From assembly GCF_000698785.1 (NCBI RefSeq), contig NZ_CP007536.1:1980001-2012000 (forward strand): a stretch of 32,000 nt of DNA. The letters are read 5' to 3'. Under the pieces are notes generated by a model. The model did not search any database. It worked only from the letters and a program-made list of their open reading frames with translations, and was not told where the DNA came from. The translations under genes were made by a program, and so were the position numbers. Source of the stretch: Nitrososphaera viennensis EN76. GTDB taxonomy: Archaea > Thermoproteota > Nitrososphaeria > Nitrososphaerales > Nitrososphaeraceae. Within the stretch, counting starts at the first letter, position 1. The number at the start of each line of letters is the position of its first letter. Below are positions 1,848-20,718 of the stretch, piece after piece.

Positions 1848-2450
1848 TCACATCGCGCCCTTGGTGCTTGGCACCCCTTTCCTCCTGCCGTCGATGCTTG
1901 CCGCCGCCCTGAGGGCAAGCGCAAACGCCTTGAGCGCGGCCTCGACCTTGTGGTGGTCGTTGTCGCCGTACTCCACCACCATGTGGGTGCACGCGTTGAG
2001 GCCCTGCAGGAGCGACCTGCAAAAGTGCTCAAGGTCCTCCCTCGGGATACCTTCAATGCTTGCGCGCTCCAGCTTGACGTCCATCCTGTGATATTGACGT
2101 TTAACGAGGTCGATTGCGACATAGGCAAGCGCCTCGTCCATAGGCACCATCGCGCTCCCAAACCTCACTATCCTTGCCCTGTCGCCCAGCGCCTTGTCTA
2201 TCGCCTGCGCAAGGGCGATTGCAACGTCCTCTGCAAGGTGGTGTACGATGCCGTCGTTTGACTTGCCGGCAAGCGTGATGTCCATCATCGAGTGCTTGCC
2301 TATCGAGGTTATGAGGTGGTCGATAAAGGGCAGGCCGGTCTTGACCTTGGTGTTGCCGTCGCCGTCAATGTTGACCTCTACGGTGACTGATGTCTCTTTT
2401 GTGACGCGCTCGACCCTAGCCTTCCTCGCAGCAGCAGGAGAAGGAGCCAA
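1848..2450 (-). CDS. hisB: Imidazoleglycerol-phosphate dehydratase HisB (monofunctional, no phosphatase domain)
   Basis: RVTKETSVTVEVNIDG...GLPFIDHLITSIGKHS...HHLAEDVAIALAQA...DNDHHKVEAALKAFA contains the IGPD metal-binding His motifs. Its 200 aa length means there is no fused HAD domain. Confidence 0.92.
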   Translation of the reverse strand: MAPSPAAARKARVERVTKETSVTVEVNIDGDGNTKVKTGLPFIDHLITSIGKHSMMDITLAGKSNDGIVHHLAEDVAIALAQAIDKALGDRARIVRFGSAMVPMDEALAYVAIDLVKRQYHRMDVKLERASIEGIPREDLEHFCRSLLQGLNACTHMVVEYGDNDHHKVEAALKAFALALRAAASIDGRRKGVPSTKGAM

Positions 2451-2459
2451 CTACAGGGT

Positions 2460-3410
2460 TTAGGCTGGCTTTACTTTATTTAATAGTAGCTTTGGCAGGA
2501 GGTCGACGCTTTTTGCCACCGCTTCTGCACCCCTCTCCTTGAAAAGCGCAAGCGTCTTGGCTGGCTCGGGAGAAAAGCCGTATATCCCGACAAACGCAAT
2601 GGGCAGGCCCGTTTCCTCCTGTGCCCTGCGGGCCATCAGCATGTCCTCGGCCGAGTCGCCGCAGTACAGCGCGTTTTTTGCGCCCATCACCTTCATGGCC
2701 CTCTTTGCCGCATAGGGGTTTGGCTTGGCGTACTCTCTCTTTTCATCCTCCAGAAACACGCAGGCGTCGATGTCAAAATACTGCATCACCGGCTTGAGCG
2801 AATACTCCGCGGCAAGCCTGCTCCTTCCAGAGACGATCGCAAGGTTGCCTCCAAGCTTTTCGTACAAAATCTTCATTGTCTTTTTGCTCACGGCAAGCCT
2901 GTCGTTGTCGATGAGCGGTTTTGTATCCATGCAGTATTTCGGCGCAATGCCGTTCTGCTTTTTAAAGAGCGCCGGCCCGTAAAACAGCTCGTCAAACACC
3001 CTGCCGATGTAACTATCTTTTACAGGCGCAGGGTAAGCAAGCATTTCCTTGATTTTTGCAATGTCATATCTTGAGAGGAACCTTTCAACAGACTCTATCC
3101 CGGTCTCGTCTGTGTTTTCTGCTATTTCTAGCAGGAACTTGCGCGCGCCGGCCGCCGTGGTTTTCTGCTGTTTGTTTGCAAGAAGCATGGCAAGCGCAAT
3201 CGCATAGCTGGTGTCGGTGTCGTTGTTGAACCCGCCGCTCTGCCTGAACTTTAGTATCAGCCGGTCGGTGACAAGGCCGCGCATCTTTGTCATCCCGGAC
3301 TGCGCAAGCACGAAATCGACCGTCTTTTTTATCGCCTCGTTGTACGACTTGCGTATGTCGACGAGCACGCCGTCTATGTCAAACAGCGCGCAGTCAAACG
3401 ACATATGCAT
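2460..3410 (-). CDS. HAD-superfamily hydrolase with a large cap insertion; candidate histidinol-phosphate phosphatase
   Basis: HAD motif I is FDIDGVLVD, motif II LAIVSGRS, motif III YAKPNP and motif IV CGDSAEDM. The gene sits between hisC and hisB, and its start shares one nt with the hisC stop (TGATG). Confidence 0.8.
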   Translation of the reverse strand: MHMSFDCALFDIDGVLVDIRKSYNEAIKKTVDFVLAQSGMTKMRGLVTDRLILKFRQSGGFNNDTDTSYAIALAMLLANKQQKTTAAGARKFLLEIAENTDETGIESVERFLSRYDIAKIKEMLAYPAPVKDSYIGRVFDELFYGPALFKKQNGIAPKYCMDTKPLIDNDRLAVSKKTMKILYEKLGGNLAIVSGRSRLAAEYSLKPVMQYFDIDACVFLEDEKREYAKPNPYAAKRAMKVMGAKNALYCGDSAEDMLMARRAQEETGLPIAFVGIYGFSPEPAKTLALFKERGAEAVAKSVDLLPKLLLNKVKPA

Positions 3411-11228: not shown

Positions 11229-11293
11229 ACGCTATCATGGAGGGGTTGGATGGAGAAGGCTTAAAATGTAATCCCTCGTCTTTACAATAAACA

Positions 11294-12409
11294 ATGAAAG
11301 TTTCTGACATCATGGTTGCAGACGTTGCAAGCGCCGCCTCGGAAGACCCGGTCGCCAAGGCGTTCAGCGTCATGATTGACAGGTCGATTAACCAGCTGCC
11401 ACTCGTCGACGAGGGCGGCCGGTATGCCGGCATGGTGTTTGCCAAGCACCTCCTTTCTTCAGGCGCCCCGCCCACGTCAAAGCTAAAGAGCTATGCGGTA
11501 AAGACGCAGGCGCTAAGCCCCGACGAGGACGTCGAAAAGGCGGCCAGGATGGTGCTTGGAAGCGGCAACAGGGCGCTTCCGGTCGTGGAAAACAACGGCA
11601 GGCTCGCAGGGATTGTCAGCGAGACCGACATCGCCCAGACTGCAGACTTTGGGCACGCGACCGTCGACGAGGTGATGTCAGGTGCAATCGTGATCGAGGA
11701 GGACACCCCGCTTGCCGACGCCATGTCAAAGATGCGCCGCTACAACATTTCCCGGCTGCCGGTAATCGACAAGAAGGGCGTCCTTCGCGGGGTCGTCAAC
11801 ATACTTGACGTCGCGTCGATACTCGCGACCCCGAAAGAGCGCACGAGCAAGTCCGCCGCCATCACCGGCAGCAAGTCAAGGGTGCAGGGCGACGTGAAGG
11901 TGAAGGACATCATGCGCAGGGCGGTGTCTGTCGAGCGCGGGACAAAGATGAACGACCTGTCGGAGCATTTCAAGAGCAACGAGGAGATAGTGGTCGTGGG
12001 CGACGGCAGGCCGATGGGCATCGTGACTCCAAAGGACGCGCTGGAGCTGATACTGCCGCAAAAGAGGGACGGGCCGGCCATCCACATGGCGCACCTTGAG
12101 GGCGACTCTGACAGGCGCGAGATCGAGGAGCAGCTCGCAAAATTCGTCAAGAAAATCCAGGGCAGGCTGGGCGACATCCAGTCGGTGGTCGTCTACGCGG
12201 ACAAGCACAAGACCCGGAAATACTCTGTGAGGTGCCGGCTCATGACGGCCAAGGGCGTGATAAACGCCAAGGCGGTGGGCTATGACCCGCTAAGCGCGTC
12301 CAAGGAGCTCATCGAGAAACTTGACAGGCAGATCAAGACCGAGCACACCCAGAAGGTCAAGGGCAGGCAGCACCGCGAGTCCGCAAGAAAAGCGGAAGAA
12401 GAAGTGTGA
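11294..12409 (+). CDS. Four-CBS-domain protein with C-terminal HPF/RaiA-like (ribosomal S30AE-like) domain
   Basis: Four CBS units occupy about aa 1-55, 66-116, 123-176 and 203-255. Residues aa 263-352 follow the HPF beta-alpha-beta-beta-beta-alpha pattern and end ...SASKELIEKLDRQIKTEHTQK. A TTAAAATG box lies about 29 bp upstream of the ATG. Confidence 0.8.
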   Translation: MKVSDIMVADVASAASEDPVAKAFSVMIDRSINQLPLVDEGGRYAGMVFAKHLLSSGAPPTSKLKSYAVKTQALSPDEDVEKAARMVLGSGNRALPVVENNGRLAGIVSETDIAQTADFGHATVDEVMSGAIVIEEDTPLADAMSKMRRYNISRLPVIDKKGVLRGVVNILDVASILATPKERTSKSAAITGSKSRVQGDVKVKDIMRRAVSVERGTKMNDLSEHFKSNEEIVVVGDGRPMGIVTPKDALELILPQKRDGPAIHMAHLEGDSDRREIEEQLAKFVKKIQGRLGDIQSVVVYADKHKTRKYSVRCRLMTAKGVINAKAVGYDPLSASKELIEKLDRQIKTEHTQKVKGRQHRESARKAEEEV

Positions 12410-12413
12410 TAGG

Positions 12414-12545
12414 CGCGGACGAGGAGATTTGAACTCCTGATCGCCCGAGGGCGAATCGGCTTTCTGTCAGGCCATGTGGTAGTAACCGACTCAAGGCCGA
12501 CGCATTATTGTGTCTCGAGTAGAGAGACCACTCTGCCACGTCCGC
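12414..12545 (-). tRNA. tRNA-Ser(UGA), class II, with two apparent introns (D-loop and anticodon loop)
   Basis: Hand fold: acceptor GCGGACG/CGTCCGC, U8G9, D stem GCA/UGC, anticodon stem UCGGC/GCCGA with loop CUUGAG..A. The long variable arm is UCGCC-CUCG-GGCGA, the T arm is AGGAG-UUCAAAU-CUCCU, and the discriminator is G. The gene is 132 nt against about 86 nt expected. Confidence 0.8.
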
Positions 12546-12692: not shown

Positions 12693-12857
12693 CTATTCCA
12701 CTTCTCCGTAATGCACGGTTCTCACGTGCTCCTCCCTGTCCTGCAAATCATCAAAAGCAAGCTGGCACATGTAGCACGACCACTTGTACTTGGGAGGCCG
12801 CTTTTCAGGTCTTGCCCTGAACGCATTTGCAAAATACCTTGAAAGAGCAAACGTCAT
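12693..12857 (-). CDS. 54-aa classical C2H2 zinc-finger microprotein (not in the ORF track, below its size cutoff)
   Basis: My translation is MTFALSRYFANAFRARPEKRPPKYKWSCYMCQLAFDDLQDREEHVRTVHYGEVE. It has C-x2-C-x12-H-x4-H spacing and a basic N-terminus. Confidence 0.5.
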   Translation of the reverse strand: MTFALSRYFANAFRARPEKRPPKYKWSCYMCQLAFDDLQDREEHVRTVHYGEVE

Positions 12858-13114: not shown

Positions 13115-13321
13115 TCATCGTTCGATTTCCTTGAACGACGGTGATGCGCCGATGAACTTGGCGATCTTGTATTTTAGAAAAACCGGGTGTTCTTTGCCGC
13201 AATCATTGCATCGAAGCCTGACATTGCCGGAGATGCTTCTGTACCTCGGTTTTGTTGTTTCATCTTCCTCGATGCATTCAAGCACGTTGCCGCAATCGCA
13301 GGAAAATGACTGCTTTGCCAT
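13115..13321 (-). CDS. Small zinc-ribbon protein (hypothetical)
   Basis: A 68-aa ORF with CDCG ... C ... CNDCG cysteine knuckles. It is more protein-like than the overlapping plus-strand ORF 12945..13346. Confidence 0.5.
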   Translation of the reverse strand: MAKQSFSCDCGNVLECIEEDETTKPRYRSISGNVRLRCNDCGKEHPVFLKYKIAKFIGASPSFKEIER

Positions 13322-13577: not shown

Positions 13578-13847
13578 ATGGTGATGCCCGGCCAGGGTCA
13601 GTTTTTTGGGCGAGTGATAAAGCTAGTCGGCGGCGACAACATCGTAGTGAAATGTACTGACGGCAAGGTAAGGACCTGCAGGATCAGGGGAAAGATCAAG
13701 CGAAGGATGTGGATAAGGGACAACGACCTAGTCCTGGTGGCGCCTTGGGACTTTCAGTCTGACAAGGCAGACATCATCTGGCGGTACATTTCTGCGCATG
13801 CAGAAAAGATCAAGCAGGACGGCCACCTGGCGGGTCTTGACGAATAA
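13578..13847 (+). CDS. eif1a: Translation initiation factor aIF-1A (S1/OB fold)
   Basis: GQFFGRVIKLVGGDNIVVKCTDGKVRTCRIRGKIKRRMWIRDNDLVLVAPWDFQSDKADIIWRY is the conserved IF1A OB-fold core. The first ATG may truncate the N-terminal tail (see findings). Confidence 0.88.
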   Translation: MVMPGQGQFFGRVIKLVGGDNIVVKCTDGKVRTCRIRGKIKRRMWIRDNDLVLVAPWDFQSDKADIIWRYISAHAEKIKQDGHLAGLDE

Positions 13848-19203: not shown

Positions 19204-20718
19204 ATGGTTCTAACTAGCACAAAACCGATGTACTTGGAACGTAATACTGACCTTGGAAAATTCTCACATGGAAATTTTGACTTCAATTTTGACCCAAACG
19301 AACCTTCAGTGACAATTGTAGTTAGAGTAAAATACAAGCTACAAAAAGGAATCAGTTCCGAAGAAGCAGCTCGATTCAAGGAAAGGTTACAGAAGGCGGT
19401 TAACGAATTCGCACATAATAGGGCTGAACTTATTCCTAAAGATCGCAACGGGCCAAGAATACCCATTCGAGTAATCCTTCAGGAAAACAATTCAAGTTAT
19501 CACAAGGTTGTTGACTTGGAGAAAGTTAGAAAATGGCCTTTTGAAAGACCATGGGTTGGAAAAGACATGAATTTTGGTCTCAATAACGGTATAGTTACAT
19601 TGGCTCATGAATTCTATCATGTTCTTGGAAACTATGACGAATACGATGGAGGAGTACTTGAAAATTCTGGCTGGTGGCACGATAATCGTTATTTTAGTGA
19701 CCAAAGAAAATCGCTGATGGGTAACGGAACAGAACTCCGGGAGCGTTATTTTGACCATATCGCACGAAAGGTCTCTAATTTGACAGGAAGAGAATATCTT
19801 CCAGCCTTGGTCCAACCGAGTTCAAATACCTCAAATTACTCTCAGCCGGTACGTGCTAGAGCTATTGACACGCATCCTAAAATTAGGACACATTTGAAAT
19901 TCGGAGATCGGGGCAATGACGTGGTTAACCTGCAAAAATCGCTAAACAGTTATTTTGATTCTGGTTTAAAAGTGGACGGGATCTTTGGTCCAAAGACAAG
20001 ATCGGCAATAAGAAGACTTCAGCATCAATTTGGATTAAAAGAAGACGGGATTGTCGGTCCCCGAACTCTTGGGGTTTTTGGAAAGAAGGCGACCCTAATT
20101 GAAAGTGGTATGAAGGGCAATACCGTCCGCGACATACAAAAAACTCTCAACACTCGTTTCGGTGCCGGTTTAAAAGTGGACGGTATCTTTGGTCCAAAGA
20201 CAAAAAGTGCTGTTCAAAAGATTCAACGGCTTTACGGTCTAAAAGCAAACGGGATTTTCAATTACAATACTAATCTCGCCATCGCAAAAGAACCTTCAAT
20301 AATCAAGAGTGGAATGCGAGGATCGTACGTCCGTGATGTTCAACAAAGGCTTAATGCAAGCATGGGATTTGGTCTAAAGGAAGATTCAATATTTGGTGCC
20401 AAGACGCGAGAATCCGTTAGATCTGTTCAGCGATTGTACGGACTAAAACAAGATGGAATCTTTGGTCCAAAGACAAAAACTGCTATGAATAGCCATGTTC
20501 CTCAGACGATGCGCAGCGGATTGAAAGGAGGTTCCGTAAAAGAACTTCAAGGCCTGTTAAATAGAAAAGGCTATTCACTCGCAGTCGATGGTATTTTTGG
20601 AACAAAAACAAAAAATGCAGTGATGGATTTTCAGAGAAAAAACGGTCTTATTGCTGATGGCATAGTTGGCCCTAAAACCTGGAAAATTATGCTAAGTGGC
20701 AACAGAGTCCGCCAGTAG
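19204..20718 (+). CDS. HExxH zinc-metallopeptidase-like N-terminal domain fused to four PG_binding_1 (peptidoglycan-binding) repeats
   Basis: HEFYHVLGNYDEYD lies at nt 19606-19647 and has HExxHxxGxxD spacing. Four ~68-aa repeats of the G..V..LQ..LN......DGIFGPKT..AV...Q...GL..DGIVGP.T type occupy aa 231-497. No signal peptide is visible. Confidence 0.8.
   Translation: MVLTSTKPMYLERNTDLGKFSHGNFDFNFDPNEPSVTIVVRVKYKLQKGISSEEAARFKERLQKAVNEFAHNRAELIPKDRNGPRIPIRVILQENNSSYHKVVDLEKVRKWPFERPWVGKDMNFGLNNGIVTLAHEFYHVLGNYDEYDGGVLENSGWWHDNRYFSDQRKSLMGNGTELRERYFDHIARKVSNLTGREYLPALVQPSSNTSNYSQPVRARAIDTHPKIRTHLKFGDRGNDVVNLQKSLNSYFDSGLKVDGIFGPKTRSAIRRLQHQFGLKEDGIVGPRTLGVFGKKATLIESGMKGNTVRDIQKTLNTRFGAGLKVDGIFGPKTKSAVQKIQRLYGLKANGIFNYNTNLAIAKEPSIIKSGMRGSYVRDVQQRLNASMGFGLKEDSIFGAKTRESVRSVQRLYGLKQDGIFGPKTKTAMNSHVPQTMRSGLKGGSVKELQGLLNRKGYSLAVDGIFGTKTKNAVMDFQRKNGLIADGIVGPKTWKIMLSGNRVRQ

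Follow-up and report, generated by a model that had tools for sequence, protein, structure and literature searches.

An archaeal ribosome hibernation factor that joins a CBS module to an HPF domain has been described under two names, HibA in Pyrococcus abyssi (Q9UYR4) and Thermococcus barophilus (F0LKU5) (Madru et al., Nat Commun 2026, PMC13324472; PDB 9SR9-9SRF, 9T7H) and AHA in Haloferax volcanii (HVO_2384 / D4GWN2; Souza et al., bioRxiv 2026, PMC12934967). Cryo-EM located the HPF domain of HibA in the 30S subunit's mRNA/tRNA channel and the CBS module on the 50S subunit, where the module takes three positions and bears a "PTC loop" (P. abyssi residues 190-207) (PMC13324472); loop 3 of AHA enters the peptidyl-transferase centre (PMC12934967). 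In both solved systems, the factor was found on 70S ribosomes, and the AMP or ATP site was at the CBS3/CBS4 interface (PMC13324472, PMC12934967). P. abyssi HibA binds AMP, ADP, and ATP with Kd values of 12, 65, and 113 µM, respectively, and translation inhibition by HibA requires the C-terminal domain (PMC13324472). Two AMP are seen in the ribosome-bound AHA of H. volcanii (PMC12934967). A T. barophilus deletion strain contained about 60% fewer 70S ribosomes and showed delayed regrowth (PMC13324472), and deletion in H. volcanii lowered viability and depleted ribosomal proteins (PMC12934967).

The initial annotation of the N. viennensis gene analyzed here had read it as a CBS-HPF fusion that might couple energy or nucleotide status to ribosome silencing, and mentioned a possible involvement of CBS-containing proteins in archaeal ribosome hibernation. 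The architecture is the same as that published for HibA/AHA, and such an involvement has indeed been published (HibA, PMC13324472; AHA, PMC12934967). Its view that HPF-family factors are bacterial or plastid proteins is out of date, as HibA is present in 47% of 4026 archaeal genomes (PMC13324472) and AHA occurs in 2,723 species spanning 17 phyla (PMC12934967). The observation is real and the reading correct, but already known, the family having been published in 2025-2026.

The N. viennensis gene and its relation to HibA and AHA

The window, that is, the whole stretch of DNA analyzed, comprises 32,000 nucleotides of Nitrososphaera viennensis EN76 (contig NZ_CP007536.1). The ORF at 11294..12409 of the + strand has an ATG start and 371 codons plus a stop, and its translation into a 371-aa product is exactly as the initial annotation gave it. 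By sequence look-up, the product matches UVS68551.1 / WP_075055348.1 / UniProt A0A977ICN8 (UniRef100_A0A977ICN8) exactly. The original GenBank annotation, AIC16624.1, is "putative inosine-5'-monophosphate dehydrogenase", with a start 26 codons later than in the 371-aa form; alignments to the solved chains 9l96_a and 9sr9_H begin at residues 1-3 of the long form, not at the AIC16624.1 start. The JGI automatic annotation of relatives reads [quoted passage not shown]. The features of the locus, with the evidence for each, are as follows.

11258..11271, + strand: A/T-rich box GGCTTAAAATGTAA, 26-33 nt 5' of the ATG (sequence read and orthologous loci)
11294..12409, + strand: predicted hibA/AHA gene (ORF; exact sequence look-up; full-length homology to 9sr9_H and 9l96_a)
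11294..11647, + strand: Bateman module 1, CBS1 (aa 1-57) and CBS2 (aa 58-118) (Pfam, AF2 secondary structure, motif scan, invariant columns in alignment A1)
11648..11824, + strand: CBS3 core, aa 119-177 (Pfam, AF2, conservation)
11825..11893, + strand: basic CBS3 loop, aa 178-200, ATPKERTSKSAAITGSKSRVQGD, net charge +3 (AF2 pLDDT, alignment, conservation)
11894..12055, + strand: CBS4, aa 201-254 (Pfam, alignment A1, motif scan)
12056..12076, + strand: linker from CBS module to HPF domain, aa 255-261 (low pLDDT at 256-258, low conservation)
12077..12349, + strand: HPF core, aa 262-352 (PF02482, Foldseek, profile match to E. coli HPF)
12350..12406, + strand: C-terminal tail, aa 353-371, QKVKGRQHRESARKAEEEV (AF2 models, conservation, charge)

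At positions −33 to −26, the A+T fraction across 78 orthologous loci was 0.8-0.9; close relatives have the box GGCTTAAAATGTAA in common. It is probably an archaeal TATA element preceded by a BRE-like purine run, as its spacing is the usual archaeal one; such an element would point to an mRNA with a very short leader or none. A sigma-70 promoter/terminator scan, which is unsuited to an archaeon, served only to locate the A/T box. Neither ARAGORN nor an Rfam scan of the whole window gave RNA genes, and an Rfam scan limited to a region did give one.

In sequence searches of the PDB, 9l96_a ranked first (E 1.6e-25) and P. abyssi HibA 9sr9_H second (E 1.6e-21), the latter in a single alignment of aa 3-348 to 6-369; with the family profile, the E-values were 3.9e-30 and 3.2e-30, respectively. 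The entry 9sr9 is a HibA-ATP ribosome complex (PMC13324472), and 9sr9_H is the closest solved chain backed by a publication. The literature search gave no publication on PDB 9l96 or on its sister entries; the acidic chain 9l96_a looks haloarchaeal. Identity to the characterized HibA/AHA proteins is only about 20-25%. The AHA preprint lists A0A977ICN8 among the nine HPF-domain queries used to gather AHA homologues (PMC12934967), and N. viennensis was part of the genome set surveyed by the HibA authors (PMC13324472). From this homology, the N. viennensis protein is very probably an orthologue of HibA (= AHA) with the role of that family.

Structure of the CBS tetrad and the HPF domain

Pfam detected four PF00571 CBS stretches in the full protein (E 8.5e-41), and the N-terminal part of the AF2 model showed four beta-alpha-beta-beta-alpha units forming two Bateman modules. 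The two modules and four CBS motifs of the initial annotation thus stand, and only the boundary shifts from aa 1-255 to aa 1-254, including a 23-residue loop (178-200) inside CBS3. CBS2 carries the canonical G-h-h-S-x-x-D motif (G106-D112), whereas the Asp of the motif is missing in CBS1 (G46 MVFAKH). The CBS3 core is the most conserved part of the tetrad, with 18/59 positions invariant among 78 sequences; its motif is GVVNILD, in which G166 and D172 are invariant in alignment A1, an assignment made at the motif level. The CBS4 motif G242-IVT-PK-D248, a ribose/phosphate motif of the G-h-h-T-x-x-D type, is invariant. Foldseek of the tetrad gave the ribosome-bound SriA and Dri as best matches, together with AMPK gamma, CBS tetrads being found at E down to 1e-20. 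SriA was the top fold match (E 1.4e-20) and the third-best PDB match of the family profile (1.5e-27).

The CBS3 loop ATPKERTSKSAAITGSKSRVQGD is disordered in the AF2 model (pLDDT <50 at aa 180-197) and aligns with P. abyssi HibA residues 190-207. Its first half is well kept, with P180, E182, R183, and S187 at least 94% conserved among 77 relatives and N. viennensis. By alignment, the loop is the predicted counterpart of the HibA PTC loop and AHA loop 3.

The C-terminal region matched PF02482 (Ribosomal_S30AE) over aa 274-353. For the full protein, the score of 24.8 bits clears the gathering cut-off (23.7) by a modest 1.1 bits; the C-terminal 119 aa alone scored 27.4 bits (E 5.7e-6). The best NCBIfam match of the C-terminus was TIGR00741 (yfiA equivalog), yet at 26 bits compared with its cut-off of 40.9. 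The domain is thus homologous to the PF02482 domain without being an equivalog of bacterial YfiA/HPF. Searched as a sequence profile against the PDB, it matched E. coli HPF best (E 0.0026). When the C-terminal model was compared with the PDB by Foldseek, ranks 1-39 were taken exclusively by HPF/RaiA/YfiA/pY chains, mostly from ribosome complexes, with 8fmw_W as the best match (E 6.8e-6); for E. coli HPF (6h4n_x), the target-normalised TM-score was 0.77 and the rmsd 2.9 Å. The AF2 models are of moderate quality (pLDDT 77.6 for the full length and 75.3 for the C-terminal domain), being built on shallow alignments of 35 and 24 close relatives, respectively.

[quoted passage not shown] The HPF/RaiA-like assignment of this region was likewise borne out, its core being aa 262-352 (12077..12349) rather than 12080-12349, and so was the charged tail, as QKVKGRQHRESARKAEEEV is a basic, poorly conserved stretch of 19 residues that is modelled at low confidence as the last helix running on. 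The domain itself is basic (net +5, pI 9.5), and its K/R-rich beta2-beta3 hairpin is nearly invariant among relatives.

Compared with P. abyssi HibA, the alignment shows 6- and 5-residue gaps in the N. viennensis protein at HibA residues 283-288 and 326-330. The P. abyssi insertions, termed archaeal-specific, form a uS19-tail site (283-288) and a uS12 and decoding-centre site (324-330), and a double-deletion variant lacking both still inhibits translation in vitro (PMC13324472). Both insertions are likewise absent from 77/77 Nitrososphaeraceae orthologues, whose HPF core equals E. coli HPF in length, and insertion lengths vary in a set of 45 diverse fused representatives. Such insertions describe HibA/AHA members without defining them. 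We regard the Nitrososphaeraceae form as a minor variant, because deleting the insertions left inhibition in vitro unchanged; since the uS19-tail and uS12 insertions are absent, details of 30S docking may nevertheless differ. That these proteins form a distinct "minimal" HibA subtype, docking on the 30S in a more bacterial-like manner via an invariant DKHKTRKYSxRxR hairpin and shedding the CBS module by degrees, is a tentative idea that we consider unlikely.

Conservation and variant forms in Nitrososphaeraceae

Full-length orthologues of 359-380 aa were found in 77 species-level Nitrososphaeraceae genomes. With the full-length architecture conserved in these 77 genomes, neither the ORF nor the domain match can be put down to chance. 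The underlying scan of genome contigs used highly specific peptide patterns and returned 80 loci, all from Nitrososphaeraceae and none from N. viennensis itself; the wider distribution is taken from the published surveys.

In related Nitrososphaerales, the CBS module is lost or decaying while the HPF domain persists, so that the forms of the lineage are graded from the full fusion through CBS3-4 with a separate HPF to a stand-alone HPF. P0136 is a seemingly genuine stand-alone HPF, and L082 is a split gene. Two other candidates for a stand-alone RaiA were rejected, P0130 as a contig-end fragment and P0122 (Nitrososphaera sp. FF02) as a frameshifted full-length gene. This series could record the shedding of the CBS module and may show which half is dispensable in soil ammonia oxidisers.

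The gene neighbourhood lends no functional support. An aIF1A gene lies 1.2 kb downstream (13578-13847), and a functional link to it was rejected, as the gene is in reach at 4/62 orthologous loci and there in another position. The divergent upstream neighbour, a PQQ-type glucose/sorbosone dehydrogenase, is conserved at 58/68 loci; no connection to the factor was seen, and we treat it as plain synteny.

Proposed function and comparison with known systems

By analogy with the solved complexes, the HPF domain would plug the channel of an idle 30S subunit and shut out mRNA and tRNA, and the tethered CBS tetrad would take the vacant tRNA sites on the 50S subunit, with the long CBS3 loop able to extend into the peptidyl-transferase centre. 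One polypeptide gripping both subunits would keep the idle 70S ribosome assembled, silent, and safe from degradation in starvation, and the preserved 70S ribosomes would allow faster regrowth afterward. Judged by their sequences, the parts expected for the HibA mechanism are conserved, namely the basic HPF domain, the basic CBS3 loop and its conserved start, the K/R-rich hairpin, and the CBS4 motif. That the N. viennensis protein binds ribosomes and nucleotides and inhibits translation, and what role it plays in the cell, we infer from the characterized proteins. The CBS3/CBS4 interface is the probable site for adenine nucleotides, and binding or release of the factor may therefore follow the energy charge. 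Even for the model systems, a link between energy status and silencing is tentative, because neither AMP nor ATP clearly altered HibA-ribosome binding (PMC13324472).

We also considered a protein of the HibA type whose main target would be the free 30S subunit, blocking initiation or subunit association like short bacterial HPF/RaiA, with the CBS tetrad as a nucleotide-controlled switch instead of a 50S-binding staple of the 70S ribosome. The HPF core of bacterial length, the absence of both ribosomal-protein-contacting insertions, and the existence of HibA-bound 30S particles in vitro would fit such a protein. The conserved CBS residues of HibA sit in the core, not at ribosome contacts, and the related Nitrososphaerales that keep HPF while CBS is lost or decaying suggest that HPF may work alone. 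However, the PTC-reaching CBS3 loop is retained with a strongly conserved first half, the full fusion is kept in 77 Nitrososphaeraceae genomes, and the factor sits on 70S in both solved systems, so we judge this improbable. Even less credit, hardly more than a slight chance, is given to a CBS-tetrad regulator with mainly non-ribosomal targets, either an HhpR-like transcription factor or a partner in replication or recombination, whose HPF-like domain would be a generic nucleic-acid-binding module. The transcription regulator HhpR is one of the CBS tetrads that also bear a long loop in this position, and pull-downs with Thermococcales HibA gave replication and recombination proteins; the NCBIfam HhpR match is weak, though, at 43 bits against a cut-off of 520, and HhpR-type (CM-3) proteins lack an HPF domain. 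Ribosome hibernation factors make up all 39 top-ranked structural matches to the C-terminal domain, and the nearest characterized homologues are ribosome-bound.

The old annotation AIC16624.1 would make the protein an IMP-dehydrogenase-related enzyme, or else a generic CBS protein whose S30AE match arose by chance, and IMPDH models do match partially, through their CBS inserts. The identity as IMP dehydrogenase is refuted by the missing catalytic domain: PF00478 was not found even at E up to 10, CBS and S30AE being the only domains, and the equivalog scores 56 against 481 bits over the CBS region only. The S30AE assignment is independently backed by fold and by conservation in 77 genomes, and the AIC16624.1 start lies 26 codons late relative to the solved-chain alignments; the chance that either version is right is negligible. 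The protein is thus best read as a HibA/AHA-type hibernation factor.

The HibA/AHA family extends HPF-type ribosome hibernation beyond bacteria and ties an AMPK-gamma-like nucleotide sensor to the ribosome. The case for it was made in three papers of 2025-2026, one of which names the N. viennensis protein, and the local value of the gene is modest. Soil ammonia-oxidising archaea grow slowly and endure long starvation. In these organisms, the gene is an obvious candidate for ribosome preservation and possibly a dormancy marker for soil metatranscriptomes, and its stripped-down HPF core makes it a natural case in which to ask whether the "archaeal-specific" insertions are important in vivo.

Compared with HibA, the N. 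viennensis protein shares the full-length architecture but differs in the sequence of the CBS3 loop; its host is a mesophilic ammonia oxidiser, not a hyperthermophile, and no Phr-like regulator such as that of HibA is known in N. viennensis. AHA is the same family under another name. Like AHA, the N. viennensis protein has a CBS tetrad related by fold to AMPK gamma; in AHA, sites 3 and 4 were observed with two AMP, and for the N. viennensis protein the comparison is at the level of motifs, canonical in CBS4 and GVVNILD in CBS3. The beta2-beta3 hairpin of 9l96_a is longer than that of N. viennensis.

The bacterial and plastid HPF/RaiA proteins (YfiA, pY; PF02482) have the same core fold and size as the N. 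viennensis domain, with TM-scores up to 0.79 normalised by target, rmsd of 2.2-3.1 Å, and identities of 16-28%. Relative to E. coli HPF, the beta1-alpha1 loop is of equal length and the beta2-beta3 hairpin has about one extra residue, and the domain would bind the same 30S site as bacterial HPF. Unlike bacterial HPF, which stands alone with about 95-115 aa or occurs as long HPF, the N. viennensis domain is preceded by 261 residues of CBS tetrad and linker. Its core is followed by a 19-residue tail only, in contrast to the C-terminal dimerisation domain of long HPF, and 100S formation of the bacterial kind is therefore not expected. The CBS-only factors Dri (Pyrobaculum, 9E6Q/9E7F), SriA-D (Methanosarcina, 9ZNF/9ZNG/9ZNI; PMC13454478), and ARC-A/ARC-P (Methanolobus) carry a CBS tetrad of the same radiation. 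Their CBS modules block 30S or 50S and the HPF domain is absent, whereas the N. viennensis protein has one. In published trees, the CBS module of HibA/AHA adjoins SriA / CM-5, and the distribution of Dri, Sri, and ARC is largely exclusive with that of HibA/AHA (PMC13324472, PMC12934967).

Domain content and fold of the hibA product

The initial annotation had described four CBS domains followed by a C-terminal HPF/RaiA-like domain, and this observation was confirmed in the following gene of Nitrososphaera viennensis EN76, which is a genuine open reading frame.

11294-12409, plus strand: hibA, coding for 371 residues

A Pfam search of the full protein found four CBS stretches (E 8.5e-41) and Ribosomal_S30AE (PF02482) at residues 274-353, the latter scoring 24.8 bits (gathering score 23.7). 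When the last 119 residues alone were used as the query, the PF02482 score was 27.4 bits (E 5.7e-6). In NCBIfam, the yfiA equivalog, a stricter model, was the top match to the C-terminus, yet stayed under its cut-off (26 vs 40.9 bits). At the sequence level, the HPF signal is modest.

The protein is identical to UVS68551.1, WP_075055348.1 and UniRef100_A0A977ICN8, and its 371-aa form is used by RefSeq and UniProt. The long start is backed by two solved chains, 9l96_a and 9sr9_H, which aligned from residues 1-3, and by 77 Nitrososphaeraceae orthologues. The GenBank model AIC16624.1 starts at Met27, lacks the first 26 codons (11294-11371), and describes the resulting 345-aa product as a "putative inosine-5'-monophosphate dehydrogenase". 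This identity, from the first GenBank annotation, was rejected, as the catalytic domain was absent in Pfam and NCBIfam searches.

The AlphaFold2 model of whole HibA (pLDDT 77.6; 35-sequence alignment) showed four CBS units, with a disordered 18-residue stretch (180-197) within CBS3. Modeling residues 255-371 on their own (pLDDT 75.3) gave the same C-terminal secondary-structure order; both models are based on shallow alignments of close relatives. In Foldseek comparison with the PDB, ranks 1-39 for the C-terminal domain were all HPF, RaiA/YfiA, protein Y, and plastid pY chains, mostly from ribosome complexes (lowest E 6.8e-6; TM-score normalized by target up to 0.79). The domain sequence profile had E. 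coli HPF as its top PDB match (E 0.0026). Furthermore, the full-length model was most like the ribosome-bound CBS tetrads of the CBS-only factors SriA and Dri, plus AMPK gamma. Therefore, these fold matches indicated that the HPF/RaiA structural description was correct.

Family membership and mechanism

The two best PDB sequence relatives were 9l96_a (E 1.6e-25) and 9sr9_H (E 1.6e-21, a single alignment over residues 3-348); with the family profile, both reached ~3e-30 in the PDB sequence set, above SriA. Entry 9SR9 is the Pyrococcus abyssi HibA-ATP ribosome complex of Madru et al. (Nat Commun 2026), who defined HibA as four CBS domains (1-269) plus an HPF/RaiA-like domain (270-392) and reported it from 47% of the 4026 archaeal genomes surveyed, N. 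viennensis being one of the set (PMC13324472). AHA of Haloferax volcanii, described by Souza et al., belongs to the same family, and "Nitrososphaera viennensis (A0A977ICN8)" was one of their nine HPF-domain queries for homologue collection (PMC12934967). Thus, the N. viennensis protein is more than a family member, since this exact sequence has already been handled as one in the literature; in the literature searched, the accession was cited by Souza et al. only.

The chain 9l96_a (with 9l98, 9l9c, and 9l9v) is a 406-aa "CBS domain-containing protein" with a CBS-HPF architecture like that of the N. viennensis protein, and its acidic composition looks haloarchaeal. No paper citing these four entries was found in the literature search, so another structural study of the family may be unpublished.

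In P. abyssi, the HibA C-terminal domain occupies the 30S mRNA/tRNA channel, and the CBS module is found at three places on the 50S (PTC, uL5, and L1 stalk); when the module is at the PTC, its CBS3 loop (190-207) encircles the universally conserved PTC adenine (PMC13324472). HibA inhibits translation in extracts, for which the C-terminal domain is required, and hibA deletion in T. barophilus lowered stationary-phase 70S ribosomes by ~60% and doubled the regrowth lag (PMC13324472). Deletion of AHA in H. volcanii resulted in lost viability, poor competition, and loss of ribosomal proteins in stationary phase; two AMP were found on AHA, the CBS3/CBS4 interface being the AMP site (PMC12934967). 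HibA binds AMP, ADP, and ATP with Kd of 12, 65, and 113 uM (PMC13324472).

We infer function in N. viennensis from these homologues, at ~20-25% identity. The HPF domain would lie in the 30S mRNA/tRNA channel and the CBS module on the 50S with its CBS3 loop at the PTC; the protein would inhibit translation and bind AMP at the CBS3/CBS4 interface. The features required by this mechanism are kept: the HPF domain (net +5, pI 9.5) and the C-terminal tail are both basic; the basic, 23-residue CBS3 loop aligned to P. abyssi 190-207, with P180, E182, R183, and S187 in its first half each conserved in at least 94% of 78 sequences; and the CBS4 ribose/phosphate motif was invariant in the orthologue alignment. 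The reading of the fusion as a ribosome-hibernation factor is supported. Its proposed coupling of energy status to ribosome silencing stays hypothetical, because neither AMP nor ATP clearly altered HibA-ribosome binding (PMC13324472).

Gene neighborhood and related loci

The hibA gene is a single unit, and its divergent neighbor, a PQQ-type glucose/sorbosone dehydrogenase gene, is kept in 58/68 loci. An A/T box conserved across the family, GGCTTAAAATGTAA, is located 26-33 nt 5' of the ATG, consistent with a putative archaeal TATA element and with an mRNA that has little or no leader. The following features were observed downstream.

12414-12545, minus strand: tRNA gene
12693-12857, minus strand: 54-aa ORF
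13115-13321, minus strand: 68-aa ORF
13578-13847, plus strand: aIF1A gene (PF01176, E 3.3e-22)
19204-20718, plus strand: 504-aa protein with four PG_binding_1 repeats (E 1.2e-66)

The tRNA gene begins 5 nt past the hibA stop codon and converges with hibA. It was detected by a region-restricted Rfam scan (RF00005, 40.7 bits against a gathering score of 29; E 1.4e-7) and missed by ARAGORN and by the whole-window Rfam gathering scan. Insertions relative to RF00005 of 21 nt in the D-loop region and 31 nt at the anticodon loop suggest two introns. The variable arm is long, and the anticodon would be UGA (Ser) by our own reading. The tRNA is kept downstream of hibA in 79/80 related loci, and in 57 of them the copy is nearly complete.

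The aIF1A gene reads in the same direction as hibA and lies 1.2 kb beyond it, which is suggestive, as both products would target the 30S A site. This proximity was rejected as coincidental because it was observed in only 4/62 related loci, and there at a different position. No other translation-related gene was found among the larger window ORFs scanned; the remaining window contains histidine biosynthesis genes, HMG-CoA reductase, a cupredoxin, an ArsA/Get3-type ATPase, and an ammonium transporter. The 54- and 68-aa ORFs between the tRNA and aIF1A carry paired Cys motifs (C-x2-C ... H/C), zinc-ribbon or C2H2-finger-like in look; they had no Pfam match, and counterparts were found in 1 and 0 related loci, respectively. 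The peptidoglycan-binding repeats of the 504-aa protein are odd in an archaeon without murein.

Two loci of related lineages showed signs of CBS-module loss.

P0136, JGI contig of 2802 nt, gene 1654-2001: 115-aa HPF protein, 63% identical to the N. viennensis C-terminal domain
L082, 563-1269: 108-aa CBS3-loop-CBS4 ORF, stop, 33-nt gap, and separate 115-aa HPF ORF

P0136 is 185 nt away from a divergent HMG-CoA reductase gene, too little space for a CBS tetrad, and nothing CBS1- or CBS2-like was found upstream of the L082 ORFs. Both agree with a published view in which unfused HPF proteins of archaea derive from fusions that lost the CBS module (PMC13324472). Two other short proteins were rejected as stand-alone HPF. 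P0130 is a contig-end fragment, and the 126-aa P0122, annotated as "HPF/RaiA family ribosome-associated protein", corresponds to the 3' portion of a full-length hibA gene (locus L004, 2238-3336) of Candidatus Nitrososphaera sp. FF02 (NZ_JBLNIH010000001.1). This gene is frameshifted in the CBS3-loop region, with overlapping ORFs (2238..3038 and 2761..3336) in different frames; either it has decayed into a pseudogene or the sequence contains an error. Such cases may inflate stand-alone HPF counts in this clade.

HPF core compared with known systems

P. abyssi HibA carries two HPF-domain insertions described as specific to archaea: insertion 1 between beta13 and alpha11, which helps hold the extended uS19 tail, and insertion 2 between beta14 and beta15, which binds uS12 and stabilizes the decoding bases (PMC13324472). 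Compared with the P. abyssi sequence, rebuilt from the PDB alignment with numbering in agreement with published positions, the N. viennensis protein was gapped by 6 and 5 residues at insertions 1 and 2, respectively. It was essentially equal in length to E. coli HPF at both sites, and compared with 9l96_a, the extra residues at both sites belonged to 9l96_a. Neither insertion was found in any of the 77 full-length Nitrososphaeraceae orthologues from species-representative genomes, in which a short hairpin (Y-x-D-K-H-K-T-R-K-Y-S-x-R-x-R) is nearly invariant. When 1.84 billion representatives were searched with a profile, 76 matched at E <=0.001, 45 of them with fused length (340-419 aa); in most of these 45, the hairpin was 3-4 residues longer and the beta1-alpha1 loop 2 longer than in N. 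viennensis. Together, the gaps, the absence of insertions, and the longer loops elsewhere show that the Nitrososphaeraceae HPF core is a stripped-down one.

The CBS-HPF finding itself is already published, the sole new detail being this clade-wide insertion absence and the signs of CBS-module loss in related lineages. A HibA double-deletion variant, with 283SAL285 removed and 324KFRGVHL330 replaced by two alanines, remains a translation inhibitor in vitro (PMC13324472). Therefore, we regard the insertion absence as a minor variant, with which the N. viennensis protein remains a member of the HibA/AHA family.
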